Part shown: in pieces, positions 11,680 to 49,674 of the stretch
How the letters are laid out: the number at the start of each line of letters is the position of its first letter
How positions within the stretch are numbered: position 1 is the first letter of the stretch
Assembly (NCBI GenBank): GCA_964490445.1
Contig: CAZBDA010000002.1
Location: forward strand, 6,078-70,077
Reading direction: 5' to 3'
DNA length: 64,000 bases
Source of the DNA: an uncultured Rickettsiales bacterium
GTDB taxonomy: Bacteria; Myxococcota_A; UBA796; UBA9615
Translations under genes and position numbers: made by a program
Notes under the pieces: model-generated
Database searches by the model: none
The model's input: only the letters and a program-made list of their open reading frames with translations
What the model was told of the DNA's origin: nothing

Positions 11680-12312
11680 GTGCCGCATCCAGGTGCCAAA
11701 CCACGCAAGTTCATCGCCGTCGCCGGCAACATCGGTGCCGGCAAGTCGACCCTGGTGGACTTCCTCTGCCAGACCTACGGATTTCGGCCGTTTGTCGAGC
11801 CCAACCTGCTCAACCCCTACCTCGACGACTTCTACCAGGACATGTCGAAGTGGTCCTTCCACTCCCAGATCAGCTTCCTGAGCCACAAGTTCCGACTGCA
11901 CATGGAGCTGATGTCCGAGCCGGCGACCGTGGTTCAGGACCGCACGATTTACGAAGACGCCGAGATCTTCGCCCGCCACCTACACTCCGTTGGCCACATC
12001 TCGGATCGGGACTTCGCCACCTACAACCACCTGTACGAGGCGATGCAGAAGGCCCTTGCTCCCCCTGACCTGCTGATCCGGCTCAATTGTTCAGTGCGGG
12101 CTCTACGCAAGCGCATCCGCAAGCGCGGCCGCAAGAACGAGCAAGACATCCCAGCCACCTACCTGAAGCAACTCAACCAACTCTATGATCGCTGGTTCGA
12201 ACGCTATGAACTCTCTCCGGTAGTCGAGATCAACACCGAGAAACTCGACTACATTTCGGATTTCCTGGACCGCCTCGAGGTACAGAACGCCATGGAGCCC
12301 TTCTTATTGTGA
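11680..12312 (+). CDS. deoxynucleoside kinase (dAK/dGK/dCK family)
   Basis: P-loop AVAGNIGAGKST, the DRTIYED..IFA motif and an overall ~210-aa dNK layout. Its stop overlaps the start of the next gene. Confidence 0.8.
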   Translation: MPHPGAKPRKFIAVAGNIGAGKSTLVDFLCQTYGFRPFVEPNLLNPYLDDFYQDMSKWSFHSQISFLSHKFRLHMELMSEPATVVQDRTIYEDAEIFARHLHSVGHISDRDFATYNHLYEAMQKALAPPDLLIRLNCSVRALRKRIRKRGRKNEQDIPATYLKQLNQLYDRWFERYELSPVVEINTEKLDYISDFLDRLEVQNAMEPFLL

Positions 12313-32985: not shown

Positions 32986-33194
32986 TCGACTCCACTCCGG
33001 GGCGCGGCCCCTACTGATAGCAAAGACGCTATCACAGCTGATCGGCACGCGCTATCAGCCAAGCTATCAAACTCGTCGCAAAGATCCTGTGGGACTTTCA
33101 CTTGTCTTTGCGACCGCGGCGCAGCATCATTCCAGCCGACATCAATCACAGTTACGCGTGTGCAGGGTGTGAAGGTGCACCCTGGGAGGTTTCA

Positions 33195-34010
33195 ATGCGT
33201 CCGATACAGGCTCTTCTCTCCGCCCTGCTTCTGCTCAATCTCGGTGGCTGCGAGGCTCTGAATCCCGATCCTGATGAGGATGGCCTGACCACTGAGTTCG
33301 AGGAGAGCATCGGCACCGACCCGCTGCTGAATGACACCGACGGAGACGGCTTCGACGACGCGACCGAGGTGCTGACCTACTTCTCCCCACGCAACCAAGA
33401 CGATCACCCCTATGAAGGCGCGTATCCCAGGGGGCCGCTCATGAACGGCGACGCCTGGGACGAGTACACCGACGATGCCGGCTGGGACGAGGGCGAGATC
33501 AGCAGAGGCTGGAAAGTGACCGACCAGCACGGTGACGAAATCAAGCTGAAGCGATTCTTCGGCAGCGTAGTCCTCATCGACATGAGTTCCGAGTGGTGCG
33601 GCCCCTGCCGTTCGACCGCCGAGACCCTCGACGAGGAGTACCAGGACCGCAAGGAAGACGGCTTTGTCATCATCCAATTGCTGCTCGACGGCCTGGGCAT
33701 GGGGGACAGGAACCCCCAGGGAGATCGCTGGATCGAGGAATTCGACATCACCTTCCCCCTGATTGAAGATGGTGACCTGCACGCAGCCCCGCACTACATT
33801 CCGTCGGGTAGTTTCGGAATTCCCAACTACACCGTCATCGATCGTCAGCACCAGATCGACACCTGGTACCAGGCAGGCGGCGAGCCCCCGTGGGAGCTCA
33901 TCGACGACCTGCTCGACGAAGATCGACCTGACGTAGACTATGTGCTCCCCGAGAATGCCGACGAGCTCTACGAGAGTCTCGAAATCAACCCCAACTCCTG
34001 GATCAACTGA
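33195..34010 (+). CDS. TlpA/ResA-like thioredoxin-fold lipoprotein with N-terminal Asp-rich calcium-binding-type repeats
   Basis: RBS GGGAGG at 33184. Lipobox LNLGGC|EA. D.D.DG..D repeats (NDTDGDGFDDATE). Redox motif WCGPC. Confidence 0.7.
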   Translation: MRPIQALLSALLLLNLGGCEALNPDPDEDGLTTEFEESIGTDPLLNDTDGDGFDDATEVLTYFSPRNQDDHPYEGAYPRGPLMNGDAWDEYTDDAGWDEGEISRGWKVTDQHGDEIKLKRFFGSVVLIDMSSEWCGPCRSTAETLDEEYQDRKEDGFVIIQLLLDGLGMGDRNPQGDRWIEEFDITFPLIEDGDLHAAPHYIPSGSFGIPNYTVIDRQHQIDTWYQAGGEPPWELIDDLLDEDRPDVDYVLPENADELYESLEINPNSWIN

Positions 34011-34091: not shown

Positions 34092-35180
34092 ATGAACGGA
34101 CTCCAGCGAAAGGCACCTGCAATGCAACGCTTGCTTCTTACCCTCGTCTCCTTACCCCTGCTACTGGTCGGCTGCGGCCCCAGAGACACGGACGAGGACT
34201 ACCTGCTCGACGATTTCGAGATCGCAATCGGAACCAATCCCGAGTTGGCGGACTCCGACGGTGATGGCTTTTCCGATACCGAGGAGTACCTGCAGTACTT
34301 CGACCCAACCGATGAGGACGACTTCCCCTACACCGGTGGCTACCCGCGCCTTCCACTGCCCGCCGAGATCGACGATGAGGGCTGGGACGTGGGCGAAGTC
34401 AGCCATGACTGGGACAGCGATGACTCCGAAGATCAGCACGAAGAGGCCGTCAACATCCACAAGTTCTACGGCAACGTCGTGGTCATCGACATCGCAGCCG
34501 AGTGGTGCGGACCCTGCCGACAGGCCGCTCCCGAGGCCGAGCAGGAGTACCAGGACTTCATCGACAGGGGCTTCGTGGTCATCAACATACTGCTCGACGG
34601 ACTGAGCCAGTCGGAAGAGCCCGACCTTGACCGCTGGACAGAGGACCTGGAATTGACCTTCCCGGTAGTAGGTGACCACGACCAGTCGATCGCCAGCAAC
34701 TACATCGCGTCTTCAGGGAGCTTCGGCATCCCGAACTTCAGCATCCTCGACCGCGAGTTGAACATCCGCGCCAAGCAGATCAACCCCGTCGACTGGGAGT
34801 TGGTCGGTGAACTCCTCGACGAGGATCCGCCGCAGGTAGACTGGCCTCTGCCCGAAAATGCCGACGAGATCCGCGCCGAGTTGGGGATCTCCATCACCGC
34901 TTCCACTGCGGATTACATCGTCCCCGGCGAGGGCATCCCCGAAGCCTCGGGTGGCGCCAACCTGAACGGTGGCGGTGGAGCCAGCACAACCGATGGCCCT
35001 GAGACCGGCGGAGAGGTCTCCAACGAGGCTGCGGAAGCCGTTGTGCCTGGCGAGTACGCAGGCCCTCCGTTCGGCGGTGCCGGTTCCGGCTGCGCGGTCG
35101 CTGCGAACTCCTCCAGTACCGGCCTCGTGTCACTGGCATTGGTGCTTGTCGGCATGCTCGGTCTGCGCCGCCGCCGCTGA
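34092..35180 (+). CDS. TlpA/ResA-like thioredoxin-fold lipoprotein paralog with MYXO-CTERM-type tail
   Basis: Lipobox LLLVGC|GP, DSDGDGFSDTEE repeats, WCGPC motif. C-terminal GSGCAVA...LALVLVGMLGLRRRR. Paralogous to 33195..34010. Confidence 0.7.
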   Translation: MNGLQRKAPAMQRLLLTLVSLPLLLVGCGPRDTDEDYLLDDFEIAIGTNPELADSDGDGFSDTEEYLQYFDPTDEDDFPYTGGYPRLPLPAEIDDEGWDVGEVSHDWDSDDSEDQHEEAVNIHKFYGNVVVIDIAAEWCGPCRQAAPEAEQEYQDFIDRGFVVINILLDGLSQSEEPDLDRWTEDLELTFPVVGDHDQSIASNYIASSGSFGIPNFSILDRELNIRAKQINPVDWELVGELLDEDPPQVDWPLPENADEIRAELGISITASTADYIVPGEGIPEASGGANLNGGGGASTTDGPETGGEVSNEAAEAVVPGEYAGPPFGGAGSGCAVAANSSSTGLVSLALVLVGMLGLRRRR

Positions 35181-38167: not shown

Positions 38168-39525
38168 TCGCCGCTCAACCCAAGGGGATGACCATGACCG
38201 CTGCCGACGAGCCCATTGATTGCACGGTCTGTACGCCTCCCGGTGAGGACGAAGCAGCGTTCTCTGCGCGCGCTCTCAACTCCATGAGCCAGGGCCTGGG
38301 CGGCTCGCAGATCCTGCGCATCGCGGGTGAGATCAAGGCGATGCAAGCCAACGGTCAGGACATCTGCAACCTCACCGTCGGCGACTTCTCGCCGCAGGAA
38401 TTCCGGATCCCAGAGCGGATGGCCAGGGACATCGCCGCGGCGCTGAGCCGGGGCGAAACCAACTACCCCCCGGCAATCGGCCTTCCCGAGACGCGAGAGG
38501 CCGTCCGCACTCTGTACGAACGGGAATTGGGCCTGAAGTACCGCATGGACAGCGTCATCATGGGCAGCGGTGCCCGCCCGCCGATCTTCGCCACCGTCGC
38601 CCTGGTGGTGGAACCGGGCGACAAGATGCTGTTCGGCATTCCCTCGTGGAACAACCCCTACTACGTGCACCTCGCCGGCGCTGGTGCTATCGCCCTTGCT
38701 ACCAACGCCGAAAGCAACTTCCTACTCACCGCCGAGATGATCCGCCCGCACCTGGACGGCGTGACACTGCTCTGCCTGAACTCACCATTGAATCCCTGCG
38801 GCACGGCCTACTCAGAGCAGCAACTGGCGGAACTCTGCGACGTCATCCTCGACGAGAACGCTCGCCGTGCCAGCTCTGGACAGCGACCGGTCATGGTCAT
38901 GTACGACCAGGTGTACTGGATGCTGTGCTTCGGAGAAACCCGACACCACAGCCCGGTGTCTGTGCGACCCGAGATGGCGCCCTACACGATCTACGTGGAC
39001 GCCATCAGCAAGTCCTTTGCCGCCACCGGCCTGCGGGTCGGCTGGGCCGTCGTCCCACCAGCCCTGACCCCGCGCTTCAAGGCGCTCATCGGCCACATGG
39101 GCGCCTGGGCACCGCGACCGGCGCAGCTTGCCACGGCAGCCCTCCTGCACGATCCCCAGGCAATCCGCGAATACCACGCCACCATGAAGACCGACGTCGA
39201 GGCGCGCCTGGATGCCCTCCACCAGGGCTTTTCGGCCATGGCTGAGCAGGGGCTTCCTGTCCACTCGCTCGCGCCTCAAGGTGCCATCTACCTGTCCGTG
39301 CACTTTGACATACTCGGCCGCAGCCACCGGGGCCACAGCATCGAGACCGACGAAGACGTCCGCAGCTTTCTACTGCAGGAGGCAGGCCTGGGAATCGTCC
39401 CCTTCCAGGCATTCGGACTGAGCGAAGATACCGGCTGGATGCGCTTCTCGGTCGGTGCGGTCTCGCTGCAGGCGATCGAAAAGGGTTTGCAACGCGCCGA
39501 AGCTGCTCTCAAACAACTGGATTGA
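38164..39525 (+). CDS. PLP-dependent aminotransferase, class I/II (aspartate aminotransferase family)
   Basis: Fold-type I layout. PLP-lysine region YVDAISKSFAATGLRVGWAV. ATGA overlap with the POT transporter stop. Confidence 0.8.
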   Translation: MIAAQPKGMTMTAADEPIDCTVCTPPGEDEAAFSARALNSMSQGLGGSQILRIAGEIKAMQANGQDICNLTVGDFSPQEFRIPERMARDIAAALSRGETNYPPAIGLPETREAVRTLYERELGLKYRMDSVIMGSGARPPIFATVALVVEPGDKMLFGIPSWNNPYYVHLAGAGAIALATNAESNFLLTAEMIRPHLDGVTLLCLNSPLNPCGTAYSEQQLAELCDVILDENARRASSGQRPVMVMYDQVYWMLCFGETRHHSPVSVRPEMAPYTIYVDAISKSFAATGLRVGWAVVPPALTPRFKALIGHMGAWAPRPAQLATAALLHDPQAIREYHATMKTDVEARLDALHQGFSAMAEQGLPVHSLAPQGAIYLSVHFDILGRSHRGHSIETDEDVRSFLLQEAGLGIVPFQAFGLSEDTGWMRFSVGAVSLQAIEKGLQRAEAALKQLD

Positions 39526-40975
39526 GCCCCGCGTCTGGTCCAGGCAACCGGCGCTGCTGGTGAGACAGCAATCGAAACGAAGCCGAGGACTCGAACCGCC
39601 ACAAGCAGAGAGCCAACCTGGCAAGGCTCCCAGAGCCGAAACTCAGTCGCCACCACCCCCGGGGCGCGTGGACCCGCCCCCGCTTCACATCCTCGCGGTC
39701 ATACACCTCGCTGTAGCCCTTGTCGGCATCGGCTTCGCCCCCCGTGCCAGTCGCGCTGGACCGGCGCGCCTGCCGCACGCTGTCGGGAACATCGGTGTAC
39801 GCCGGGTGAGGATCCAGGGGATACACGAAGGGTTCCTGCCCCGGTAGCGTCACAGAGAAGCTCGTCTCCCCGTCGCTCTCGATGACAATGTGACCATCCG
39901 CTACCCGCTGCGTCCGCCCGGTATGAGGGTGCTCCCCAGAGAACAGGAAACCATCGTCGTTCTTGGTTTGGAACACGTCGGAGCCCATGGGCCGACCCGA
40001 CCAGTAATCTTCCCAGCCGAGCAGGCGGTGCACGGTGTACTGGTTGGGGTGCTTGTGCCCACGCCCGCAGGAAATCACCGACACCTGCGGCATGATTCGC
40101 TGCAGGAAGGGATACGAACTCGACCATTGGCTTCCGTGGTGGTTGACCCGGTAGGCCTCCACCGGCCGCAGGTGCGGGAAGGTCGCGCCTTCGATGTTGT
40201 GGTACCAGGCACCCCAACTCTCGTGCAGATAGCCGCTCAGGTCTCCGCCCAGGTAGATGTCGAACTTCTTGTAATGCAGGACGAGCACCGCTGAAAAGTC
40301 ATTCTGGCTGGTACTGCTGACGTGTTCCTCCTTGACGACCCGCCCTCGCCCCTCGACCCTCGCCCCGACGGCGAGCACTTCGACCCAGACGTCCTTGCCC
40401 AGGTCGATCTGGCGGTCCGCGCCGAGTTGGTCGAAGGCCAAGGTCGAGCGCTTCACCTGGTTCTCCTCGATCCAGCGGCGATACGCCCGATCTCCCTGGC
40501 CTCCCGCGTCGTAGTTGATGCCAGTGTCCAGTAGGCGTCCGATGCGCACGTTCAGGGCATCCCAAAGGTAGAACAGGCCGGTCCACTCCCGACCCGTCGC
40601 CGCGCCAGTGTGGTCCTTGTGGTAGTGCGATGGGATCAGGTAGTCGACGTTCAAGACCGGTCGTCCCGATGGCCCATCGTCGAGATGACGTCGCAAGTAG
40701 GGTTCGATCACGTGACGAGCCTCGTTGCCCAGCTCGCCACTCTCTCCCGCGTCGTAGATCAAGACCTTGCGATCACCGCGAGCGTCCCTGGGACCCTCAA
40801 TGATCGTAGCGTCACCCTGCCCTACGTTGAGAACATGGATACGCAGAGTGTCTGGTGCGGGCCCCTGCTTCCGTGCACCGCTGACAAACAGCGACAACGT
40901 GGTGATCAGCAGCAGGCTGGCAGCCACCGCCAGGGAGCCCCTGGCCTGGCTCCCAGAAGCCGGGGATGCGCTCAC
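39509..40975 (-). CDS. metallo-beta-lactamase-fold hydrolase, ComEC/Rec2 C-terminal-domain-like (secreted)
   Basis: Signal/TM LAVAASLLLITTLSLFVSGA. MBL motifs IHVLNVGQGDATII, SHYHKDH, YRVNHHGS. The C-terminal ~60 codons of the stop-to-stop ORF may be non-coding. Confidence 0.65.
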   Translation of the reverse strand: MSASPASGSQARGSLAVAASLLLITTLSLFVSGARKQGPAPDTLRIHVLNVGQGDATIIEGPRDARGDRKVLIYDAGESGELGNEARHVIEPYLRRHLDDGPSGRPVLNVDYLIPSHYHKDHTGAATGREWTGLFYLWDALNVRIGRLLDTGINYDAGGQGDRAYRRWIEENQVKRSTLAFDQLGADRQIDLGKDVWVEVLAVGARVEGRGRVVKEEHVSSTSQNDFSAVLVLHYKKFDIYLGGDLSGYLHESWGAWYHNIEGATFPHLRPVEAYRVNHHGSQWSSSYPFLQRIMPQVSVISCGRGHKHPNQYTVHRLLGWEDYWSGRPMGSDVFQTKNDDGFLFSGEHPHTGRTQRVADGHIVIESDGETSFSVTLPGQEPFVYPLDPHPAYTDVPDSVRQARRSSATGTGGEADADKGYSEVYDREDVKRGRVHAPRGWWRLSFGSGSLARLALCLWRFESSASFRLLSHQQRRLPGPDAGLNPVV

Positions 40976-42951
40976 CGGACCCTCCTGCGTACGAGCGGCA
41001 ACGCGAACATCAACAGCATTCCGAGCCCAGCCGGGCCGAACTCCGAGGCTCCCCCGGAATCACAGCGACATCCCGGTCCCGAAGTCGGCAACTCGACCTG
41101 GCCGACAACGCAGGGCACAAGCTCGCCGGGGCTGCCGTAGTTGAACTCACCGTCGTCGGTCTGCATGGCGGGGATTTCCTGCTGAAGAGAAGCCTCGCAC
41201 CACTGGAAGGGATCTGCATTGTCGCGGCTCTCATCGGGTCCACTGTAATCGAACTGCATGGTCCGACCCTTGCGGTGGCCGGTCCGGGTCATGTCATAGC
41301 CAGCCGTGTCCACGACAAACTCTCCGCCAAAGCCATCGGGACAGAGTAGCGAGAGCGACTCCCTCGTGCTGTCTGTCAGGGAGATCGACGCGTAGGTGTA
41401 CTCCCCTGGTTGGCAGCCGACGGCTTCTGGATCCGTCGGGTCGTCGCCACTGAGCAGGCAGCCCTTGCTGAACACCACGGCCTGCCCCGCGGTGACTACT
41501 GGCTGGACGACTTCGTTGCCCAGGAAGGTCGCCTGGTTCTCAGCAACCAGGTCTCCTGCCTCATCAAAGCGCTCGCGAAGCAGCCGGCAACCACTCAGCT
41601 CGAAGTCTACGGTCCCCGGATTGTAGAGTTCGAACCACTCCGCAAACTGGGGCGCACCCTCGCCGCCATGCCGCTCTGGAGCCACCATCAACTCAGTAAA
41701 GACCAACTCGTCGACAGCTGGCCAGGCCCTGCTCTGACAGGCGCCCGGCTCACCGGGCGTCGCCAGGAACGTCAAGCCATCCGCGTGGGAAGACACCCAG
41801 TCTGGTGCCAGTGGCGGCAGGCACCAGTGACTGAAGTCGTCGTTGCTCCCGGCGTCCTCCGCCGTGCTGCTCAGGTTTACCGAACAGGAGCTACCCAGGC
41901 AGGCCGGCGCAAACTCGTCCCAGGCATAGGGAGCCGAGTCCACCGTCGCCTCAGCGCAAAGCAGGTGCACCCAGTGACTGCCCGAGTTGGCAAAAGACAG
42001 CCCGGAGTAGTTGTAGACCGCCGAGTACTGGGACGACCCGTCACCAGCGGTGGCAACGGTGCTTGCCGAGCTCTCGGAGAACAGGGCGTACTGACCCGAA
42101 ACGAGCGGCAGGGTGTTGCCCGGTGCATCGATCTCGTGAGTCGACCATTCCTCGGAGGTGAGATTGTCTGCCGTGATCTCGTCAAAAGGCCCTTCCCACA
42201 GGACACAGCCGTGCAGGTCACAGCCCGACTTCGACGTGACCAGCAACTCGAACCACTCGATGCTATCGCTGGTATCGGGTGGATCGATCATGAACTCCGT
42301 GAAGATCACATCGCCTGGATTGCAGCCCGGTTCGGTCGAGGCACACTGGTTGACGAGCCTCGGCGTCGACACCGACTCCAGGCCCAGCTCGTCATAGACA
42401 AAGGCCGTCGCTGGCGGCACACACCAGTTCTCGCTCCACTGGTCGTTGCCCTGTTCGGTCATGACCGCCGGGTCCAGGTTCACAGAACAGGTGCCGCTAC
42501 CTGCACCGGTGCAAGCAGCGGCGAAGACCCGGTCGTCGTAGGTCACATCGTCGATGACCGTACCGGTACCGCAGATCAGCTCCAGCGTCTGGGCTTCGCT
42601 GTCGTTCAACGTGATGGTGCTGTACACAAAATCCGAAACCTGCACGCAGACCTGGTCGGAGTCGAACACGACGCAATCGACGCCCTTGCTGAGCAGCGAG
42701 AACGAGCCAGGCGCCAGGCTAAGCCCCGTGAGCGCAACCTCGTCATTCTCTTCGCGCAACCTGCAGTCACTCAAATCTGCCGTAACGGTCGACGCGTTGT
42801 AGAGCTCAATCCACTCCGACGCAGCACCCGAGCGAACCAGCAATTCGCTGATCACGACGTCGCCAGGCTCGACAGCCTCGGCGCGGCCTGGAGCAAGGCA
42901 CACCAACAGCGATGCCATTGCGACACTCACCAGGGCTGGGATCCGCAACAT
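40972..42951 (-). CDS. secreted protein with three lamin-tail domains (LTD) and MYXO-CTERM-type tail
   Basis: Signal peptide. LTD-like segments VVISELLVRSGAASEWIELYN; VIFTEFMIDPPDTSDSIEWFELL; LVFTELMVAPE...AEWFELYNPG. Cys-rich. C-terminus PGCRCDSGG...GLGMLLMFALPLVRRRVR. 4-bp overlaps with both neighbouring genes. Confidence 0.6.
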   Translation of the reverse strand: MLRIPALVSVAMASLLVCLAPGRAEAVEPGDVVISELLVRSGAASEWIELYNASTVTADLSDCRLREENDEVALTGLSLAPGSFSLLSKGVDCVVFDSDQVCVQVSDFVYSTITLNDSEAQTLELICGTGTVIDDVTYDDRVFAAACTGAGSGTCSVNLDPAVMTEQGNDQWSENWCVPPATAFVYDELGLESVSTPRLVNQCASTEPGCNPGDVIFTEFMIDPPDTSDSIEWFELLVTSKSGCDLHGCVLWEGPFDEITADNLTSEEWSTHEIDAPGNTLPLVSGQYALFSESSASTVATAGDGSSQYSAVYNYSGLSFANSGSHWVHLLCAEATVDSAPYAWDEFAPACLGSSCSVNLSSTAEDAGSNDDFSHWCLPPLAPDWVSSHADGLTFLATPGEPGACQSRAWPAVDELVFTELMVAPERHGGEGAPQFAEWFELYNPGTVDFELSGCRLLRERFDEAGDLVAENQATFLGNEVVQPVVTAGQAVVFSKGCLLSGDDPTDPEAVGCQPGEYTYASISLTDSTRESLSLLCPDGFGGEFVVDTAGYDMTRTGHRKGRTMQFDYSGPDESRDNADPFQWCEASLQQEIPAMQTDDGEFNYGSPGELVPCVVGQVELPTSGPGCRCDSGGASEFGPAGLGMLLMFALPLVRRRVR

Positions 42952-45224
42952 CAGAATTTCACCCGCGCAGTAAACAGCAGCTCACCAAAGTGACGGAGGT
43001 CATAGTCGTCGGGACTGTACGTGCTGTCGGCGCCAAAGTCGCAGGTCTGTGGTGCATCGGGGAGATAGCGGCCGATTCTGCCGCGCAGGCGTAACTGGAC
43101 GCGCTCCTTTATGGACTGCTCCAGCTGCACATAGCCCTCCAAGCCCCGACTCCCCTTGCTGCCGCGGGTGTCGTCATCCTCGTAGCTGAAGCTGGCCACA
43201 ATCCGGGTGCTCGGGCTCGGCGCTACGCGCCCATGCACACGCAGGCGATGACTCTGCTGCATGACCAGTTCGCAGGCTCCGGACTCGGTGGCAACCTCCT
43301 TGCCCGTGTCCTCCCAGGTGTGGCTGTAGCGAACCACCAGGCTACCTCGACGAGGGTGCTGTAGCCGGATCGAGCCGCCCAGGCGAACGTGCTCACCGGC
43401 GCGCTCGTAGCTCTCCTCCTCCAGATCGAGTTCGTCATCTGCAGCGAGGCCAAAGACCAGGTCGTCGTCATAGGAGCCGCCGTAGCGCTGGTCGGGACCA
43501 CTCACAGCCAGGTTCTGGTTGACATACTCGGTGAACAGCCGCAGCTGCAGCCAGTCAATAGGCTTGCCCTTGAGACTGGCACGAAAGTTCAGGTCGGTGA
43601 CGTTGAACAGGATGTTGCGACTGAGATCGAAGCGGACGTTTGCCCGCAGTCGCTTGTCGGGCCGCACCGTTGCCGACAAACGCAGCCCCTGCTCGTTGCG
43701 CGCCGAGTTTCCTGCATAGCGATCAGCCGCCGCTTCGGCCCGCGTCATCGGGTTGCCGTAGCCGGTGTCGTAGTGCCGCAATGCGAGAGCTATCACGCCC
43801 CAGGAAGGCTCGAATTCCGCACGAATGAAAAACGCGTTCGCCGGAGACTCGGTAAGCCAGAGTCCCCATTCACCCTCGATATTGAACAGGCCGATGCCGA
43901 CCGATCCGTTGACACCGAGCGCGCCGAAGCCCGGCGCCGAGGGCCAGCGTTGACGAATCAGCAAGGTGTTCGGATCCTCAACCCCGGCCAGCACCGTGCG
44001 ATCGAGGAACGCCCCGTAGCCGGTCACACCGACGTGTGTGCGGCGATTGAAACGCGCGGTGAAATTGCCTCCCAGCAGGCCGACTCGAAACACGCTCGGG
44101 ATGGTCATGTAGCTGGCGCGCTTGCCATCCACCCACACCCGTGGCGACTCGACGTCTGCGGTCGCCGCGTCCAACTGCTGGCCCGCAGCGAGGCCGATGT
44201 AGCTGATGTACTGGTCATAGTTCCGGATCGACAGGAAGGCCGACATGTCGAATCGCACCTTGCCGGCTCTCAGCGCAGCAGTTCGAACCGCCGCACCCAT
44301 CAGTCCGTCGAACTCGCGGATGCGGTCCTCACCATGACCGATGCTGCGGCGCAGATAGAAGCCGTGCCGATCCCGGGCGCCGAGCGTGCTCATTACCAAG
44401 CCCTGGCCATAGTGGAGGTGGTACGAGCCGACGACCGCCTGGCCGGAGGGGCGAATGACCCGCGCATAGCCCATGTAGGGCCGGAACACCGGGGTGCCGT
44501 AGGCAGCGTAGATGTCGCCGGACCCCGGATCGTAAGCCGCCGCCTTGAGCCCCTCCTGGGCGACCCCCGCGACCCCGACGTCGATCCAGTTGAGGATTGA
44601 TACGGAAGTGCCGAGCGCAAACGCCGGCCACTTGTCATAGCCGAGCTGCGCTGCGCTGTGCCCGTAGGCTGGATAGTCATCAACAATCGGCCGGGCCACC
44701 TGGAAACCCTTCGCCATCAGGAAGTCCACCTGGCCCCGCACAGGCAGCCGCTTGTCTTTCCGGTGGTGGGCCAGGGAAAAGGACTCGATCTGGCTCTTGA
44801 TCTCCTGGGTGATGCCCTCGACCCGCGAGGCCAGATCGAGCAGCGACGCAAAGGGGCCGTCGGCTTCGCGGGCATCGACGACCGCCTGCGCCAGCAGCGG
44901 AGTGATCCCCGGCAGAGACACCAGGTCCGATGCTTCCGCGCGGTTGAGATCGACCGGAGCCTCGAGCAACCGCAGCAGCAGATCCAGCTCTTCGTCGTCG
45001 ATCAGCCCGTCATAGTAAAGCTGGCGTAGCTCGCCCTCGTCGGCGACCCGAATCTCCACCGAGAAGTCCCTCGCCTGCACCGGCACGGACACCAGCAGGG
45101 CACACGACAAGAGGCCCCACAACAGCCAGTAGCCCCGCTGCGGGCAACAACAAGCGGGGGACCGTGGTTGATCTCGGTCGTGGCACAGATCGGAATCGGG
45201 CTGCATGGAATCGTCTGGCATCAT
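42951..45224 (-). CDS. outer-membrane beta-barrel-like protein with N-terminal ComEA-type helix-hairpin-helix DNA-binding domain
   Basis: Signal peptide RGYWLLWGLLSCALLVSVPVQA. HhH motif LNRAEASDLVSLPGITPLLAQAVVDAREADGPFASLLDLASRVEGI. Long C-terminal region rich in alternating aromatic/Gly beta-strand patterns ending ...FTARVKF. Confidence 0.55.
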   Translation of the reverse strand: MMPDDSMQPDSDLCHDRDQPRSPACCCPQRGYWLLWGLLSCALLVSVPVQARDFSVEIRVADEGELRQLYYDGLIDDEELDLLLRLLEAPVDLNRAEASDLVSLPGITPLLAQAVVDAREADGPFASLLDLASRVEGITQEIKSQIESFSLAHHRKDKRLPVRGQVDFLMAKGFQVARPIVDDYPAYGHSAAQLGYDKWPAFALGTSVSILNWIDVGVAGVAQEGLKAAAYDPGSGDIYAAYGTPVFRPYMGYARVIRPSGQAVVGSYHLHYGQGLVMSTLGARDRHGFYLRRSIGHGEDRIREFDGLMGAAVRTAALRAGKVRFDMSAFLSIRNYDQYISYIGLAAGQQLDAATADVESPRVWVDGKRASYMTIPSVFRVGLLGGNFTARFNRRTHVGVTGYGAFLDRTVLAGVEDPNTLLIRQRWPSAPGFGALGVNGSVGIGLFNIEGEWGLWLTESPANAFFIRAEFEPSWGVIALALRHYDTGYGNPMTRAEAAADRYAGNSARNEQGLRLSATVRPDKRLRANVRFDLSRNILFNVTDLNFRASLKGKPIDWLQLRLFTEYVNQNLAVSGPDQRYGGSYDDDLVFGLAADDELDLEEESYERAGEHVRLGGSIRLQHPRRGSLVVRYSHTWEDTGKEVATESGACELVMQQSHRLRVHGRVAPSPSTRIVASFSYEDDDTRGSKGSRGLEGYVQLEQSIKERVQLRLRGRIGRYLPDAPQTCDFGADSTYSPDDYDLRHFGELLFTARVKF

Positions 45225-45272
45225 AGGCCACTGGCACCACGAACCAAACAAGCCGGAGGAGTACTCTGTTCG
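45225..45272. promoter_or_regulatory. short divergent intergenic region between the HhH-OMP operon (-) and the MBL lipoprotein gene (+)
   Basis: Only about 48 bp separate the two inferred start codons at 45224 (-) and 45273 (+). Confidence 0.3.
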
Positions 45273-46547
45273 ATGCAGAAGCCAGACACTCGCCACGCTG
45301 CTCTCTTCGCAACCAGCTTGATGGTCCTGCTACTGCTCGCGGCTTGCCCCCCCAGGCACGCTGCTACCGGCCTTGCATCGAGTGGCTCGACCGCCACCCA
45401 AAAGGGTGCGCAGGCCGACGCCGACCCCCTCGACACCGGCCTCTCGATTCACATCTTCACCCTGGCCCAGGCGGATTCACTACTGGTGCTCGGCCCCGCT
45501 CCGCAGCGGCGCTCCTTGCTCATCGACCTCGGCTCTACGCGCGGTGGTGACCGAAAAAACCACCTACGCGTCGCCGACCGAATCGAAGCACTCAGTGGGC
45601 GTCGCCAGGTCGACTACTTCCTTGTCTCCCACTTCCACGCTGACCATGTCGGCACTGCGGGCCGAGGCAAGGGCAAGCCCAGCGGAATGTTCGCACTGCT
45701 CGCGGACGACAACGAGGCGTTCAGGATCGGCACCTGGCTGGACCGCGGTGACAGCGGCGAAGAATTCGCCCCACGCACAAGACCGCACAAGGATCTGCTC
45801 GAACACATCGACGGCTGGCTGGGCTCGGGTCGCGTCGGCAAACGCGAAGTTCCTGCCATGGGAGTCGGCAGCATTGACCTGGGGCCGGGCGTAACCGTCG
45901 AAGTCCTCTCGCTGAACGGCAAGCGCAGCGACGGCGCGAGTGCCCTTGAGGAAATCGAAGCGAAACACCCGGGCAACTACGCGCAGGCGCCGGCCTCGGA
46001 GAATGATTTCTCCATCGCTCTGCTCATCCGTAGCGGTGAGTTCGAGTTCTTCACCGCCGGAGACCTGACGGGAGCTGCCTGGCCCGGCGCCGGCAAGGCC
46101 TATCCCGCGAGCACCCGGCGAACCTTCGGGCGCAAGTCCTCTACCTACACGAACGTCGAGTCCTGGCTTGTCCAGGACTGGCGCAACAACGGCCGGCAGT
46201 TGGACGTCGAAGTCTACCGCGCAAATCACCACGGCTCGGCCTATTCGTCCAACGAAGACCTGCTAGGGGAACTCGACCCGGAGTTCATCATCTACTCCTG
46301 CGGCGGCATGTACGGGCACCCTGCCCCCGAGGTCGTGCAGCGCGGCGCAAAGACAGCACGGCAACTTGTCACCTATGCTGCCTCGCTGAGTAGTTGGCCC
46401 AGCGGACTACCGGCACAACTGGCAACACTGGTCGGCGAGATCGCGATCCATGTGGCCAGCGATGGCCGGAACTACACCATTGCCGGCGAGTCGCAGCCGG
46501 CCTATAGCGACAACGACGAGGCCCAGGGCAAGGACCGCAGACCCTGA
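45273..46547 (+). CDS. metallo-beta-lactamase-fold hydrolase lipoprotein (ComEC-type MBL domain paralog)
   Basis: Lipobox LLLAAC|PP. MBL motifs IHIFTLAQADSLLV, SHFHADHVG, YRANHHGS. Paralogous to 39509..40975. Confidence 0.7.
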   Translation: MQKPDTRHAALFATSLMVLLLLAACPPRHAATGLASSGSTATQKGAQADADPLDTGLSIHIFTLAQADSLLVLGPAPQRRSLLIDLGSTRGGDRKNHLRVADRIEALSGRRQVDYFLVSHFHADHVGTAGRGKGKPSGMFALLADDNEAFRIGTWLDRGDSGEEFAPRTRPHKDLLEHIDGWLGSGRVGKREVPAMGVGSIDLGPGVTVEVLSLNGKRSDGASALEEIEAKHPGNYAQAPASENDFSIALLIRSGEFEFFTAGDLTGAAWPGAGKAYPASTRRTFGRKSSTYTNVESWLVQDWRNNGRQLDVEVYRANHHGSAYSSNEDLLGELDPEFIIYSCGGMYGHPAPEVVQRGAKTARQLVTYAASLSSWPSGLPAQLATLVGEIAIHVASDGRNYTIAGESQPAYSDNDEAQGKDRRP

Positions 46548-46558
46548 ACGGAGAGAAC

Positions 46559-47143
46559 ATGGCACGCACCCCTTCGACAATGATGCTCGACCTCGGCCAG
46601 AGCGCCCCCGACTTCCAGTTGACCGACACAGTCAGCGGCCGGCCCGTCTCCCTCGCAGAGCACGGCGGAGAGCGTGGTTCCCTGGTGATGTTCATCTGCA
46701 ACCACTGCCCCTTCGTAGTGCACATCCTCGAGGAGTTGCGCAACATGGACCGTGACTACCGTGGCAAAGGGGTCGAGCTCTTCGCCATCAGCGCGAACGA
46801 TGTCGCCAACTACCCGGACGATTCCCCCGACAAGATGCAGGCGATGGCCAACAGCCAGGGTTGGAGCTTTCCCTACCTGTACGACGAGAGCCAGGAAACT
46901 GCGAAGAGCTACGGGGCGGCATGTACGCCCGACTTCTTCCTGATCGACGGAAACGGCTGCCTGGTCTTCAGAGGCCGCATGGACGGCAGCAGCCCGGGCA
47001 ACGGCGTCCCGGTCACCGGCGCCGACCTGCGTGCAGCCCTGGACGCTCTAATCAGCGGCAGCCCAGTCCCCCCCGACCAGAAGCCCAGCCTCGGCTGCAA
47101 CATCAAGTGGAAGCCGGGCAACGAGCCGGCCTACTTCGGCTAG
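46559..47143 (+). CDS. thioredoxin-fold thiol-disulfide oxidoreductase (AhpC/TSA/redoxin-like)
   Basis: C.HCP motif (FICNHCPF). Redoxin fold of about 190 aa. Confidence 0.7.
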   Translation: MARTPSTMMLDLGQSAPDFQLTDTVSGRPVSLAEHGGERGSLVMFICNHCPFVVHILEELRNMDRDYRGKGVELFAISANDVANYPDDSPDKMQAMANSQGWSFPYLYDESQETAKSYGAACTPDFFLIDGNGCLVFRGRMDGSSPGNGVPVTGADLRAALDALISGSPVPPDQKPSLGCNIKWKPGNEPAYFG

Positions 47144-49674
47144 ATCGGAGCCGGCCCGGTTCCAGTCACCGGCACGCTCTGGGCAGCATTCAACTCGTCG
47201 ACCTGCAGGACCTGCGTAGAGGTCGTGTCGCGGACCCCATCCAGTGTGCCCCCAGAGCCGGTGTCGGGACCACTCTGGCCGCGGTTGTCAGCGATGTAGT
47301 TGCCCGTCACGCTCTGCCCGTACACCAGCCCCCAGTCCGCGTTGCCGGTGATGTTGTTGCCAACGATGTCACAGAGATTGGCAGCGATGCTGGTGGTCTG
47401 GATGCCTCGGAAACTGTTGTTGGCAATGTTGGAGCCGGTGATCGAAGACACGTCGTGTCCACTGAGCAGGACCCCGGTGTAACCACCATTGCTGATGGTG
47501 CTGGCTGAAATCGTTCCCGACTGAATGTTGACGCCGTAGCTGCTTGCCTTGTCGACAAGCGTGTTGCTGATCGTCGCCTGGCCCAGGATCACTGAAATCC
47601 CGTTGCTACCGGCGCTGGGCTGATCTCCCGCCTGGCTCTGGTCGACGACCTGGCTCTGGTCGACGCTCAGGTCACCGAGGTAGCTGTAGATCCCGTGCAG
47701 CGTGGAGTTGGCCACTGTGCTGTTGGATACGCTCAGCCCACCGTCATAGACATAGATTCCGTGCGAACCGCTCGCTACGACCGAAGTTGTCGTCACCTGC
47801 ACGCCGACACGGTAACCATAGATCCCGCCCAGACCAGAGCCGTCCACCGAGGAGCCCGTAACGACCAGGTTTCCGCCGCTGCTGTGCTTCACGCCGTAGT
47901 TGTAGCTGCCACTAATGGTGCAGGACGCGACGCTCAGCAACGGGCTCTGACGACCGCTGATGCCATCACTGCCGGCACCCTCGATGGTGCAATCGCTGAC
48001 CAGACCCTGTCCGTTGTAGACGTCGACCCCGGCAGCAAAGGAGTTGCGCACCTCCAACCCCTCGGCGCTGAGGTTTCCGCCAGAGACCAGCACACCTGTG
48101 CCGCCGACAGACTCAACCACTACTGAACCATCAGTGGACACGATCAGCGCGTTGCCATCGGTAACGGAGACCCCATGGGACGCCGTTCCCGTGATCGCGG
48201 TGTTGCTCAAGCTAAGGTCGCCTCCATCGCACGAGACCCCGATGCCGCCGGTGTCGGTGACCGCGAGCCCTACCGCCGTGATCCCACCCTCAGATGCAAC
48301 CACACCATGGCTATCGACACCCACGATCGAGACACCGCTGGTTCCTGCCTGGACCACCACGTCACCTCGATAAGTGCGCAGACCGTAGCCCCGCGCATCA
48401 CTGACTGTACTGTCCGCAATGGTCAAGGTGCCGTACTGGGCGTACACGCCGGAAGCCTCGACGTCGCTGATTGTGCTGCCGACCACGGTGACCGCACCGT
48501 TGTAGCTGTGGGCACCCGAACCACGGGCAGCAGTGATCGTGGTGGAGAGCACAGTCGCATCGCCATCGATCACGTAGATCCCGGTGCGACCAGAATCCTG
48601 AACGCTGCTGTTCTCGACCGTCAGCGGGCCCTCGGCGTAGATTCCGTAAGAGTCCGTATCGACCACAGTCGAGTCCCTGATCACACCACCTACCGGACCG
48701 ACCAGGATGCCGCTATCGCTGCAGGCACTGACCGCCAGGTTGTCTGCTTCGACACCGCCATAGGCGACTACGCAGTAGCTCTCACAATCGGTAAGGGTTG
48801 TGTCGCTTACAGCCAGGCTGGACGAACTGTCGGCGAAGATGCAGTTCCTGCCCGAGCCCTCGACCGTGGTGTCCCGCACCGTCACTTCGGCGTTGTAGAA
48901 CTCCAGGGAGTGATAGTCCGTATCGGTGACGGTAACCGTGTCGACCACCACGGTGTGCGGCACGCCTGCAGTGCCGGAGTGCACCGCGCGCTGCAGGTCG
49001 CTGAAGCTACTGCCGGTAACGTTGAGGACAGGCGCCTCGCCGCTACCGTCGAACTGGACGCCCCGGAACAGCCTCGAGAAGCTCGAGGAGATCACATCAA
49101 GCCGGTTCAGATCCCTCGCAACGACGCCCGTCTGGAAGTCTCGCTGACCATCGACGAAGCTGCAGTTGTCCACTAAGAACGGCGCGCTCCGGCTGCTGAC
49201 GGACAACGAAGCGTCGGAGAAGCTGCTACCGACGATCGAAGCCGAGGCGCCTCCTTCGAGGTACAAAGAGACCCCGGTAAAGCTGGCATTGTCGAGGTTG
49301 GAGAGATCCCCATCGCCGCCGACCGAGACACCGAAGTTGCCGACACTCAGCGTCGCAGCGTTGACGAAGGTGACCGGCTCTTCGGGGGTGCCGGCGAGGT
49401 CCAGCACGCCGTCGACGATCAGCCCGGTAGCCGGCAGGAACGACACCTCAACGCCAGCCTGGATGCGCAGCGTCACTCCAGCCGCCACGTACCAGACCCC
49501 GGAGACCAGCGTGTCCTCACTCCAGGTGAGATCCTGGTCCAGGGTGTAGACCGTCTCACCAGGAGCAGGCTCATCGGGCACTTCGGGCTCAGGAACCGGT
49601 TCGCCTTCCGGCGCATCATTGCAACCAAACAGGAGCAGCAGCACTAGCAAGAGAGACCATCGCTGGGACATCAC
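47140..49674 (-). CDS. right-handed parallel beta-helix repeat lipoprotein (pectate-lyase/NosD-like fold)
   Basis: Lipobox LLLFGC|ND. Dozens of ~22-aa PbH1-like repeats (..GI.V..G...V.N..V..) through 844 aa. Confidence 0.65.
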   Translation of the reverse strand: MMSQRWSLLLVLLLLFGCNDAPEGEPVPEPEVPDEPAPGETVYTLDQDLTWSEDTLVSGVWYVAAGVTLRIQAGVEVSFLPATGLIVDGVLDLAGTPEEPVTFVNAATLSVGNFGVSVGGDGDLSNLDNASFTGVSLYLEGGASASIVGSSFSDASLSVSSRSAPFLVDNCSFVDGQRDFQTGVVARDLNRLDVISSSFSRLFRGVQFDGSGEAPVLNVTGSSFSDLQRAVHSGTAGVPHTVVVDTVTVTDTDYHSLEFYNAEVTVRDTTVEGSGRNCIFADSSSSLAVSDTTLTDCESYCVVAYGGVEADNLAVSACSDSGILVGPVGGVIRDSTVVDTDSYGIYAEGPLTVENSSVQDSGRTGIYVIDGDATVLSTTITAARGSGAHSYNGAVTVVGSTISDVEASGVYAQYGTLTIADSTVSDARGYGLRTYRGDVVVQAGTSGVSIVGVDSHGVVASEGGITAVGLAVTDTGGIGVSCDGGDLSLSNTAITGTASHGVSVTDGNALIVSTDGSVVVESVGGTGVLVSGGNLSAEGLEVRNSFAAGVDVYNGQGLVSDCTIEGAGSDGISGRQSPLLSVASCTISGSYNYGVKHSSGGNLVVTGSSVDGSGLGGIYGYRVGVQVTTTSVVASGSHGIYVYDGGLSVSNSTVANSTLHGIYSYLGDLSVDQSQVVDQSQAGDQPSAGSNGISVILGQATISNTLVDKASSYGVNIQSGTISASTISNGGYTGVLLSGHDVSSITGSNIANNSFRGIQTTSIAANLCDIVGNNITGNADWGLVYGQSVTGNYIADNRGQSGPDTGSGGTLDGVRDTTSTQVLQVDELNAAQSVPVTGTGPAPI

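Follow-up and report, generated by a model that had tools for sequence, protein, structure and literature searches.

The ddbABCDEF system of Bacteroidales (PMC12478041) brings together in one locus an outer-membrane barrel, the TonB-dependent transporter DdbC, a lipid-anchored surface partner, the DUF5689 protein DdbD, and exported or lipoprotein nucleases that vary among ddb subtypes. SusCD-type polymer-utilization loci follow a logic parallel to that of the module described below. In ExeM of Shewanella oneidensis a single polypeptide carries a lamin-tail domain (LTD), an OB-fold region, an EEP nuclease and a GlyGly-CTERM, with no dedicated barrel; as in other LTD nucleases, the LTD accompanies an exported, C-terminally tagged, membrane-associated nuclease (PMC6085458); such LTD-nuclease fusions occur repeatedly (PMC6085458, PMC4486849, PMC8289736). 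Among competence proteins, ComEA is a small protein of the periplasm, either free or anchored in the membrane, and ComEC has DUF4131 and Competence channel domains in addition to a C-terminal MBL domain that is a metal-dependent nuclease (PMC8579336).

The 64,000-nucleotide window (the whole stretch of DNA analyzed here) contains a minus-strand operon read in the order G1, G2 and G3, with G4 divergent on the plus strand, and all four open reading frames of the preliminary description were found in place. The source of the operon is an uncultured marine myxobacterium. The features are the following.

42951..45224, minus strand: G1, outer-membrane protein of HhH-barrel type; 757 aa when started from the ATG at 45224
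45069..45224, minus strand: G1 signal peptide region, residues 1-52, from the translation; h-region YWLLWGLLSCALLVSVPVQA, then RDF
44961..45068, minus strand: G1 mature N-terminal segment; strand-like motif F-S-V-E-I-R-V, then acidic helices
44775..44960, minus strand: G1 ComEA-type double helix-hairpin-helix (HhH) domain; hairpins LPGIT and VEGIT
42954..44741, minus strand: G1 24-strand outer-membrane beta-barrel in the predicted structure, residues 162-757
40972..42951, minus strand: G2, exported protein with three LTDs, 659 aa; 1-bp overlap between its ATG and the G1 stop
42514..42885, minus strand: LTD 1 of G2; best Pfam stretch 29-138, residues 23-146 with a local LTD HMM
41902..42336, minus strand: LTD 2 of G2; residues 206-350 with the local LTD HMM, 1.3e-42
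41272..41733, minus strand: LTD 3 of G2; residues 407-560 with the local LTD HMM, 6.8e-35
40975..41073, minus strand: MYXO-CTERM-type sorting tag of G2; GPGCRC ... LGMLLMFALPLV RRRVR
39509..40975, minus strand: G3, exported ComEC-type MBL hydrolase; overlap of 4 bp between its GTG start and the G2 stop
40013..40864, minus strand: MBL catalytic domain of G3; motifs GQGD, HYHKDH, ND, GD, NHHGS and GHKHP
45225..45272, no strand: intergenic region separating the divergent genes G1 and G4
45273..46547, plus strand: G4, MBL lipoprotein; lipobox LLAAC, Cys25, within the ORF 45168..46547

Overlaps of 4 bp had been proposed at both junctions of the operon, which holds for G2/G3 (GTGA) but not for G1/G2, where only 1 bp is shared (TGATG). 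The distance between the G1 and G4 starts, put at about 48 bp, was measured as 48 bp, with the same spacing in the related locus L102, and no sigma-70-like promoter was detected in this region. The G1 ORF (42951..45296) reaches upstream to a GTG at 45296; the ATG at 45224 is likely the start, an identical 757-aa protein being called in an independent assembly (L102/L103), and in other assemblies the start is called between 45188 and 45224. Throughout the window clade the region from the pseudouridine synthase gene through the MFS gene is syntenic, and the G1-G2-G3 triad is intact in 14 of the 15 related loci, with insertions exclusively outside it; the related locus L009 has no LTD gene.

The start of G4 is the ATG at 45273, which follows an SD-like GGAGGAG, and the protein shares 30% identity with G3 (E=1e-24), supporting, together with the lipobox, that it is a divergent MBL lipoprotein paralog of G3 as initially described; its Lactamase_B score (21.7 bits) lies slightly under 22.7. 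The gene is restricted to the closest relatives (L007, L016, L102 and L103) and was inserted along with AhpC and beta-helix genes. Judged by sequence comparison, G4 is a recent lineage-specific insertion outside the conserved core, so that its earlier inclusion in the module was not upheld. It may act as an additional lipoprotein nuclease, recently gained in the window lineage.

Full-length homologues of G1 (n=35) show 41-99% identity. The signal peptides of orthologues are of around 30 aa with an A-x-A end followed by REY, and conservation across the family is highest in the mature N-terminal segment (net charge -9), where mean identity is 65%. The HhH domain that follows matches Pfam HHH_3 (46.4 bits; gathering score 27) and falls below the trusted cut-offs of the NCBIfam ComEA models. 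The domain is of ComEA type by sequence and fold, but it differs from ComEA in being fused to a barrel and in being more acidic (net -6; family range -9 to +3). HHH_3 is invariably N-terminal in the barrel family, and in many soil members the hairpin glycines are lost and the domain is degenerate.

As anticipated in the preliminary description, the approximately 600 C-terminal residues of G1, ending in ...RVKF, model as a canonical 24-strand outer-membrane barrel, matching the fold class and strand number of large barrels (24 strands in the PapC/FimD ushers, 22 in TonB-dependent transporters; also the AlgE, Wzi and Occ channels). In the model every long loop comes after an odd-numbered strand, which would place both termini, and hence the HhH domain, in the periplasm. 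By canonical topology, the domain is predicted to be periplasmic or a plug, against the previous proposal of a surface-exposed part. The order of an N-terminal globular domain and a large barrel recalls the plug-plus-barrel of TonB-dependent transporters, and a search of G1 for a plug, a TonB box or a match to TonB_dep_Rec gave none. Conservation of the long "extracellular" loops equals that of the strands, suggesting that they may fold inward and close the pore.

Three LTD copies were found in G2 with Pfam (78.4 bits vs 34.3, 6.7e-22), and LTD 1 shows a weak match to the ExeM model. G2 scores under the cut-off of the MYXO-CTERM model TIGR03901 (14.2 bits vs 20), though the tripartite arrangement of PGC[RQ]C, hydrophobic TM helix and Arg-rich tail is present in all clade G2 orthologues and in marine PLD-type loci, so the description as a triple-LTD protein with a MYXO-CTERM-type anchor is supported. 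Tags of this type send proteins to the cell surface via the type II secretion system (PMC11980579). The protein has 22 Cys and a net charge of -78, and the multi-LTD proteins across the family have a median charge of -12 per 100 aa; this extreme acidity makes electrostatic DNA binding by them unlikely, and simple binding of this kind by G2 is doubtful. In contrast to ExeM, the LTDs of the module form a separate protein without a catalytic domain.

The assignment of G3 to the ComEC nuclease type was confirmed by profile and by fold. It matches Lactamase_B (25.3 bits vs a Pfam cut-off of 22.7) and the MBL part of TIGR00361 ComEC/Rec2 (positions 433-649, 9e-18), and the best hits in a PDB profile search were the ComEC domain 9ic4 (6.6e-35) and ComEC 30bt (1.2e-33). 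The AlphaFold model (pLDDT 86.8) is closest in Foldseek to 9ic4 (2.7e-14), followed by Pce, Integrator, RNase J, CPSF73 and RNase Z. A grouping of the MBL proteins with lactamases or glyoxalase II was rejected, since ComEC nuclease domains are closest by both approaches. All metal-binding motifs are present in G3, and the invariant residues are Q53, D55, D75, H117, H119, D121, H122, N225, D245, H279, H280 and H309. G3 and G4 belong to the MBL subfamily of the ComEC C-terminal domain (GQGD, HxHxDH, HHGS), but unlike ComEC they lack DUF4131 and Competence domains and are stand-alone exported proteins. The signal peptide of G3 in the window clade is of the ordinary kind, with no lipid anchor. Intact G3 has 448 aa; DNA alignment with L102 and L103 showed that the window copy carries a 14-bp deletion near 39658/39659 that shifts the frame at codon 440, with loss of the conserved C-terminal tail, and it is 100% identical to protein P0037 over 439 aa, diverging afterwards. 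Another protein, P0098, fuses LTD and MBL in a single chain.

A barrel profile search detected 175 cluster representatives below 1e-30. Of 24 distant metagenomic loci whose flanks each extend for at least 3 kb, 22 encode a multi-LTD protein as well as a nuclease no more than 4 kb from the barrel gene. The loci L092 and L099 have neither. The barrel and lamin-tail pair adjoins interchangeable nucleases in around 100 environmental loci: staphylococcal nuclease (SNase) in 47 and Nuc-like PLD in 17, while ComEC-type MBL is the partner in the window clade and in two others. The 391 kb adjoining the barrel gene contain 133 LTD or nuclease ORFs vs 6 in 204 kb lying more than 4 kb away, a clustering far above chance expectation. 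The catalytic residues are intact in the SNase partners (DGDT, R..VDTPE, YGR) and in the PLD partners (HxK..D..GSxN), which are single-HKD, Nuc-like proteins of around 165 aa, and nearly all partners either are lipoproteins or bear a MYXO-CTERM-like tag. The neighborhood is therefore conserved, as proposed, within the clade and also in very distant lineages, with SNase or PLD-Nuc replacing MBL. No further Pfam family recurs in the flanks (maximum 3 of 125 genes), and no inner-membrane transporter, phosphatase, nucleotidase or TonB system was found recurring among the flanking genes by Pfam. No cultured carrier was identified.

The three-part association recurs over a GC range of 43-77%, in loci whose flanks are unrelated and whose gene orders vary. 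This recurrence effectively refutes that the genes are neighbors through clade-level conservation of gene order without a functional link, a reading with almost no probability left, even though the whole region is syntenic within the window clade. Compared with ddbABCDEF, the module has a barrel without plug or TonB box that carries a ComEA-like HhH domain, a multi-LTD protein instead of DdbD, and ComEC-type MBL, SNase or PLD nucleases; it occurs in Myxococcota and further uncultured lineages rather than in Bacteroidota. The module follows the logic of ddbABCDEF and of the related transformation genes RA0C_RS04915/04920 of Riemerella anatipestifer, but none of their parts is homologous to G1-G3 (PMC12478041, PMC8459023).

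One could imagine a pilus-independent port for natural transformation, in which long dsDNA threads the 24-strand barrel, the tethered ComEA-like domain pulls it in as a binding ratchet, and the ComEC-type MBL protein digests one strand or trims the DNA, which would then be taken up by an inner-membrane ComEC channel whose gene lies elsewhere. Such a port would fit the periplasmic position of the HhH domain, a barrel within the usher size class and the closeness of G3 to the ComEC nuclease domain, and transformation in Riemerella depends not on a pilus but on an HhH protein, a surface protein and a barrel in the outer membrane (PMC8459023), from a locus related to the catabolic one (PMC12478041). 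However, the partner is mostly a non-specific SNase or Nuc-like PLD, which would destroy transforming DNA, the HhH domain is degenerate in many family members, and no comEC channel, dprA or comF is linked in around 100 loci, apart from an unrelated ComEA match in L020; we consider this port unlikely. The absence of linked uptake components and the loops that may occlude the pore would suit instead a surface nuclease platform without import, in which the barrel anchors or helps to export the LTD protein and the nuclease in a Slam/MtrB-like manner, prey, biofilm-matrix or trap DNA is degraded outside, and the products enter by unrelated routes. The anchors of nearly all partners and the contribution of the ExeM LTD to nuclease activity (PMC6085458) point the same way. 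Against it, MYXO-CTERM proteins reach the surface via the type II secretion system, which makes a dedicated barrel unnecessary for G2 (PMC11980579), a nucleic-acid-type HhH at the periplasmic end has no obvious role in protein export, and window-clade G3 has no lipid anchor, so the platform also appears improbable.

The substrate could be another phosphodiester polymer or lipid, such as a teichoic-acid-like polymer or phospholipid head groups, with the HhH as a protein-interaction module: each of the three enzyme folds is a general scaffold for phosphodiesterases, acidity is shared by the HhH and LTD parts, and the pneumococcal phosphorylcholine esterase Pce is the second-best relative of G3. 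This is very unlikely, as the profile search matches G3 to ComEC domains far better than to Pce (1e-35 vs 5e-8), the commonest partner is an SNase with nuclease residues intact, the PLD partners are of the small Nuc-like type, and LTDs are repeatedly fused to nucleases.

On balance we favor, with moderate confidence, that G1-G2-G3 are one example of an outer-membrane module, widespread but undescribed, for acquisition of extracellular nucleic acid; the preliminary reading as an extracellular-DNA capture module is supported, with no clear refutation among these results. Its constant parts would be a 24-strand barrel with a predicted periplasmic N-terminal ComEA-like HhH domain and a putatively lipid-anchored multi-LTD protein, the anchor probably being the MYXO-CTERM tag here and an N-terminal lipoprotein signature elsewhere; the variable part would be an exported nuclease, ComEC-type MBL here and SNase or Nuc-like PLD elsewhere. 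At the level of sequence, homology and conserved catalytic residues establish the nuclease class of these enzymes, and signal peptides suggest a surface or periplasmic location. The LTD protein may sit at or over the barrel on the cell surface, positioning substrate or nuclease, and the nuclease would cleave DNA or RNA of extracellular origin, either on the surface or within the periplasm. The fragments would then cross the barrel and be held at its periplasmic mouth by the tethered HhH, as by free ComEA in competent bacteria, and the products may supply nucleotide or phosphorus salvage. The same barrel and lamin-tail pair with swapped nucleases in about 100 loci thus points to an undescribed machine that harvests extracellular DNA.

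The preliminary description had read positions 39509-46547 as a candidate module for the capture and processing of extracellular DNA, made up of four genes. All four were recovered as open reading frames (ORFs), with a third-position GC of 0.75-0.78 that supports their coding status, and the same calls (757, 659, 448 and 424 amino acids) were obtained in L102, an independent assembly of the same locus on a 217-kb scaffold, where the divergent starts are 48 bp apart. The genes are as follows:

42951-45296, minus strand: G1, outer-membrane protein with a helix-hairpin-helix (HhH) domain and a barrel; most likely start ATG at 45224, giving 757 amino acids
40972-42951, minus strand: G2, exported protein with three lamin-tail domains (LTD), 659 amino acids
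39509-40975, minus strand: G3, ORF of an exported ComEC-type hydrolase of the metallo-beta-lactamase (MBL) fold
45273-46547, plus strand: G4, divergent MBL lipoprotein, inside an ORF opening at 45168

Overlaps of 4 bp had been proposed at both minus-strand junctions; this holds for the G2/G3 junction (GTGA), but the G1/G2 overlap is only of 1 bp (TGATG). A promoter and terminator scan detected no sigma-70-like promoter in the 48 bp between G1 and G4. When compared with L102 and L103, both independent assemblies of this locus, G3 in the window lacks 14 bp (GTCGATGACCCCGA) near 39658/39659, which produces a frameshift at codon 440 and affects the stretch 39509-39660 (minus strand). The shifted frame loses the C-terminal tail ...APRxDDP(E/D)GGGD, kept in every G3 orthologue, and gains 49 amino acids, as it reads into the convergent aminotransferase gene at its 3' end. 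This deletion may reflect either strain variation or a mistake in the assembly.

The N-terminal part of G1 matches the Pfam HHH_3 family (PF12836; 4.4e-12, 46.4 bits against a gathering threshold of 27) and has a ComEA-like fold, in agreement with the ComEA-type HhH domain proposed earlier. By contrast, it scored below the trusted cut-offs of both NCBIfam ComEA models, that is, TIGR01259 (30.7 vs 152.35 bits) and TIGR00426 (22.4 vs 53.1 bits), the latter being the profile that the preliminary description had chosen as a check. The domain has a net charge of -6 and the hairpins LPGIT and VEGIT; across the barrel family its net charge ranges from -9 to +3, and the hairpin glycines are gone in many soil members. 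An AlphaFold model built with 29 homologues (pLDDT 78.5, pTM 0.74) showed 24 long beta strands that come after a helical domain at the N-terminus and extend to the C-terminal ...VKF, which supports the large barrel-like region described for this protein. In the DSSP string of the model, the long connections all come after odd-numbered strands, and the even connections are all of 2-5 residues. Such a pattern corresponds to the canonical outer-membrane topology and thus would leave both termini in the periplasm; together with the even number of antiparallel strands, the C-terminal aromatic residue and the signal peptide, the modelled G1 has the features of an outer-membrane beta-barrel. Therefore, the HhH domain, earlier listed among the parts of a cell-surface machine, is probably on the periplasmic side or in the lumen as a plug, as judged from the predicted topology. 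The long loops L1, L3, L4, L5, L7 and L12 of G1 match the strands in conservation. The most conserved segment of the barrel family corresponds to the first ~36 residues of mature G1 (44961-45068, minus strand), with 65% mean identity vs 46% for the HhH domain, and consists of acidic helices preceded by a strand-like Y/F-x-V-x-I-x-V motif (alignments A1/A2). This N-terminal motif resembles a TonB box in its position, but not in its sequence.

With respect to G2, three stretches match Pfam LTD (PF00932; 6.7e-22, 78.4 bits vs 34.3), and a local HMM also detected three domains, so the triple-LTD assignment stands. Its tail reached 14.2 bits with the MYXO-CTERM model TIGR03901 (cut-off 20), and it has the tripartite layout GPGCRC / LGMLLMFALPLV / RRRVR, kept in the orthologues; the MYXO-CTERM motif has been described (PMC11980579). 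A Cys-containing W-C...GTPG..N..C segment follows each LTD, both in G2 and in the multi-LTD proteins of more distant loci. G2 contains 97 acidic vs 19 basic residues (net charge -78), and the median net charge of those multi-LTD partners (the LTD genes of loci L017-L101) is -12 per 100 amino acids, an acidity that makes a plain electrostatic binding of DNA by the LTD protein unlikely. Cation bridging, activation of the nuclease or a function as a lid are alternative roles; in the nuclease ExeM, the LTD adds to the nuclease activity (PMC6085458).

G3 scored 25.3 bits with Pfam Lactamase_B (threshold 22.7) and G4 remained just under it, with 21.7 bits; as had been claimed, the two are paralogs (30% identity, E=1e-24), both with the HxHxDH and NHHGS motifs. 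In a 41-sequence MBL alignment, the invariant positions were Q53 and D55 (of the GQGD motif), D75, H117, H119, D121, H122, N225, D245, H279, H280 and H309. When a G3 profile was searched against PDB sequences, the ComEC beta-lactamase-like domain 9ic4 had an E-value of 6.6e-35 and complete ComEC structures ranged from 1e-33 to 1e-16 (30bt at 1.2e-33), with the next family, the pneumococcal phosphorylcholine esterase, only at 5e-8. The structural model of G3 (pLDDT 86.8) also had 9ic4 as its best Foldseek match (2.7e-14, TM 0.79), ahead of Pce, Integrator, RNase J, CPSF73 and RNase Z, and neither lactamase nor glyoxalase II appeared near the top of these fold matches. The GQGD, HxHxDH, Asp, HHGS and GHP motifs and the closeness to ComEC place G3 with the ComEC-type MBL nuclease domains (COG2333-like), and both profile and predicted fold favor the nuclease assignment made earlier over a lactamase or glyoxalase II. 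The C-terminal domain of ComEC is a metal-dependent nuclease (PMC8579336).

The conservation of the module was analyzed among the close relatives (the window clade). G1 has 35 full-length homologues with 41-99% identity, all of them from metagenomes or metagenome-assembled genomes (MAGs) labelled Myxococcota or "Deltaproteobacteria". The order G1-G2-G3 with overlapping junctions is kept in 14 of 15 related loci; in L009 (1830-5397), from a related MAG, the LTD gene is missing and the MBL gene comes directly after the barrel gene. G3 is 63-82% identical within the clade, on par with its housekeeping neighbours, and G1 (41-72%) and G2 (35-58%) evolve faster. The clade also shares RsmB, PmbA/TldD-like, RlmL, AMMECR1 and HtrA genes upstream, and convergent aminotransferase and MFS genes downstream, and because the entire neighbourhood is syntenic, synteny alone proves little here. 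Insertions were found only between HtrA and G1. The one in the window (45273-49674), present in the closest relatives only, comprises G4 and two further genes:

46559-47143, plus strand: AhpC/TSA peroxiredoxin
47140-49674, minus strand: 844-amino-acid beta-helix/NosD-like protein

G4 accompanied by the beta-helix gene and/or AhpC occupies this place in the window, L102, L007 (G4 and the beta-helix gene) and L016 (G4 and AhpC), and unrelated FG-GAP/MopE genes do so in L012 and L015. G4 is thus a recent accessory gene, outside the core of the module in which it had been included. Also rejected as parts of the module were the beta-helix, AhpC and HtrA genes, together with AMMECR1, RlmL and PmbA upstream and the aminotransferase and MFS genes downstream, their synteny being limited to the clade or to the closest relatives and missing from distant loci. 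The AhpC/TSA gene is the third of its kind in the window, the other two being a tandem (33102-34010 and 34092-35180, plus strand) coding for exported AhpC/TSA-redoxin proteins with N-terminal bacterial TSP3 (calcium-binding) repeats.

The comparison with distant lineages was the decisive one. A G1-family profile searched against 1.8 billion cluster representatives yielded 175 proteins below 1e-30, of about 650-870 amino acids and many of them matched over the full length, and an N-terminal HHH_3 was present in every distant barrel protein tested. Precomputed Pfam annotations revealed four contexts, in which SNase denotes the staphylococcal nuclease family:

PLDc_2 protein (162 amino acids), barrel, LTD protein
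LTD protein and barrel, plus an MBL gene in opposite orientation
LTD protein, SNase and barrel, again plus an MBL gene in opposite orientation
Barrel, with SNase and LTD protein transcribed divergently from it

Another 80 loci (43-77% GC) came from a scan of seawater, soil, freshwater and wastewater metagenomes, and partners were detected on six-frame ORFs with HMMs derived from Pfam-verified seeds. Of the distant loci, 24 were flanked by 3 kb or more on each side, and 22 of these encoded both a multi-LTD protein and a nuclease within 4 kb of the barrel gene; at least one partner was present in 70 of all 84 distant loci, many of which are truncated. In the 391 kb close to the barrel gene, 133 partner ORFs were counted, vs 6 in the 204 kb lying more than 4 kb away. 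By type of nuclease, 47 loci have an SNase, 17 a ~165-amino-acid single-HKD PLD and 2 a ComEC-type MBL, the type also present in the window clade; the SNase partners retain the catalytic DGDT, R..VDTPE and YGR motifs, and the PLD partners HxK..D..GSxN. A natural LTD-MBL fusion (P0098) was also found. In a control scan, no other Pfam family recurred in more than 3 of the 125 other flanking genes from 26 loci, supporting that the module is bounded and the three-way association specific. The same flank scan revealed neither enrichment of TonB/ExbBD, phosphatase, nucleotidase or nucleoside-transporter families nor any inner-membrane or energy-coupling partner linked to the module. That the nuclease fold varies while the barrel and the LTD protein remain constant is the strongest argument for a nuclease role of G3 and for the handling of nucleic acids, and the neighbourhood conservation proposed as a check thus extends well beyond the clade.

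The export signals differ among these loci. The LTD protein of the window clade and of marine PLD-type loci combines a signal peptide with a C-terminal tail made up of a Cys motif, a hydrophobic helix and an Arg cluster, and its counterpart in SNase-type loci is an N-terminal lipoprotein. The SNase and PLD proteins, the MBL proteins of distant loci L018 and L019 and G4 are lipoproteins, and G3 orthologues have ordinary signal peptides. The usual SNase-type locus has five genes, encoding a small LTD lipoprotein, a 380-450-amino-acid SNase-domain lipoprotein, a multi-LTD lipoprotein, a ~160-amino-acid SNase lipoprotein and the barrel (examples upstream of the barrel gene are found in L049, L053/L054, L065, L073, L074 and L100). 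The only well-flanked distant loci without LTD and nuclease, L092 (6199-9920) and L099 (4276-7832), encode a ~540-amino-acid HHH_3 protein directly upstream of the barrel gene, with two HHH_3 detected by Pfam in the L092 copy. The protein P0291 (locus L020) was excluded from the family, as its match was limited to the HhH and it is a true multi-HhH ComEA beside ComEC.

Several assignments to known systems were considered. Among described systems, the module comes closest in its logic to the DNA-utilization locus ddbABCDEF of Bacteroides, in which the TonB-dependent transporter DdbC and the nucleases DdbA, DdbB and DdbF are combined with a DUF5689 protein, DdbD, as surface partner (PMC12478041), a locus related to Riemerella outer-membrane genes needed for transformation (PMC12478041; PMC8459023), but none of the parts of either is homologous to G1 or G2. 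A DdbC-type, TonB-dependent nature of G1 was discarded, since neither a plug, a TonB box, a TonB_dep_Rec match nor a DUF5689 partner was found. G3 is not a full ComEC/Rec2, as it matched only model positions 433-649 of TIGR00361, the MBL part (9e-18, 63.7 vs 190 bits, NCBIfam), with no match to the Competence channel domain PF03772 and no DUF4131 domain, and G2 is not an ExeM extracellular nuclease (NF033680; 14 bits vs 1300, with the LTD part alone matched). Anti-phage defence was rejected as well: with PADLOC, G1 and G2 had no match, G3 and G4 showed weak partial MBL matches only (LmuA, Avs1a), and all four proteins are exported. In the literature searched, whose coverage is incomplete, no published description of the barrel, LTD and nuclease arrangement was found.

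The observation that opened this analysis was confirmed, and its interpretation as a DNA module is supported. We consider it fairly probable that the module acquires nucleic acid. The LTD protein would be located on the cell surface at the barrel, the nuclease would cut extracellular DNA or RNA, and the fragments would cross the barrel to be held in the periplasm by the tethered ComEA-like domain, their products being finally salvaged. The module may import DNA, supply transformation or act only as a degrader of DNA at the cell surface. A more speculative possibility, to which we give rather low odds, is that the HhH-barrel proteins constitute a new family of translocons for nucleic acids in the outer membrane, in which DNA itself, and not only nucleotides, would cross the 24-strand barrel without type IV pilus, secretin or TonB, with the tethered ComEA-like domain for capture and the multi-LTD lipoprotein as a surface lid or receptor.

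Other genes of the window were also recorded. A deoxynucleoside kinase gene (11680-12312, plus strand; PF01712, 6.7e-50) lies 27 kb from the module, and as a salvage enzyme it would suit an organism fed on DNA breakdown products. A GspE/PilB-type secretion ATPase (T2SSE with MshEN domain; 16330-18138, plus strand) had no other recognisable secretion or pilus genes alongside among the window ORFs scanned. A vertebrate-type protein-arginine deiminase (Pfam PAD, 6e-65; 6751-8448, minus strand) adjoins a DDAH-like amidinotransferase-fold gene (8548-9504, minus strand).

Extracellular DNA is a large pool of P, N and C in seawater, sediments and soils, and to our knowledge its passage through the Gram-negative outer membrane is not known beyond pilus/secretin competence and the ddb loci, described for Bacteroidota in 2025. 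The module fits best among the outer-membrane loci for the utilization or uptake of DNA, although its parts, which include an unmodelled barrel family, are non-homologous, and it is a concrete candidate for such passage in Myxococcota and many uncultured lineages. It gives stand-alone multi-LTD proteins of bacteria and stand-alone ComEC-type MBL enzymes a first functional context, brings in a barrel family that had not been modelled before and is fused to a ComEA-like domain, and offers a clear case of non-orthologous nuclease replacement, usable for annotating hundreds of "hypothetical" genes. If the barrel did translocate DNA itself, this would be a widespread and previously unseen DNA route across the outer membrane of environmental Gram-negatives.
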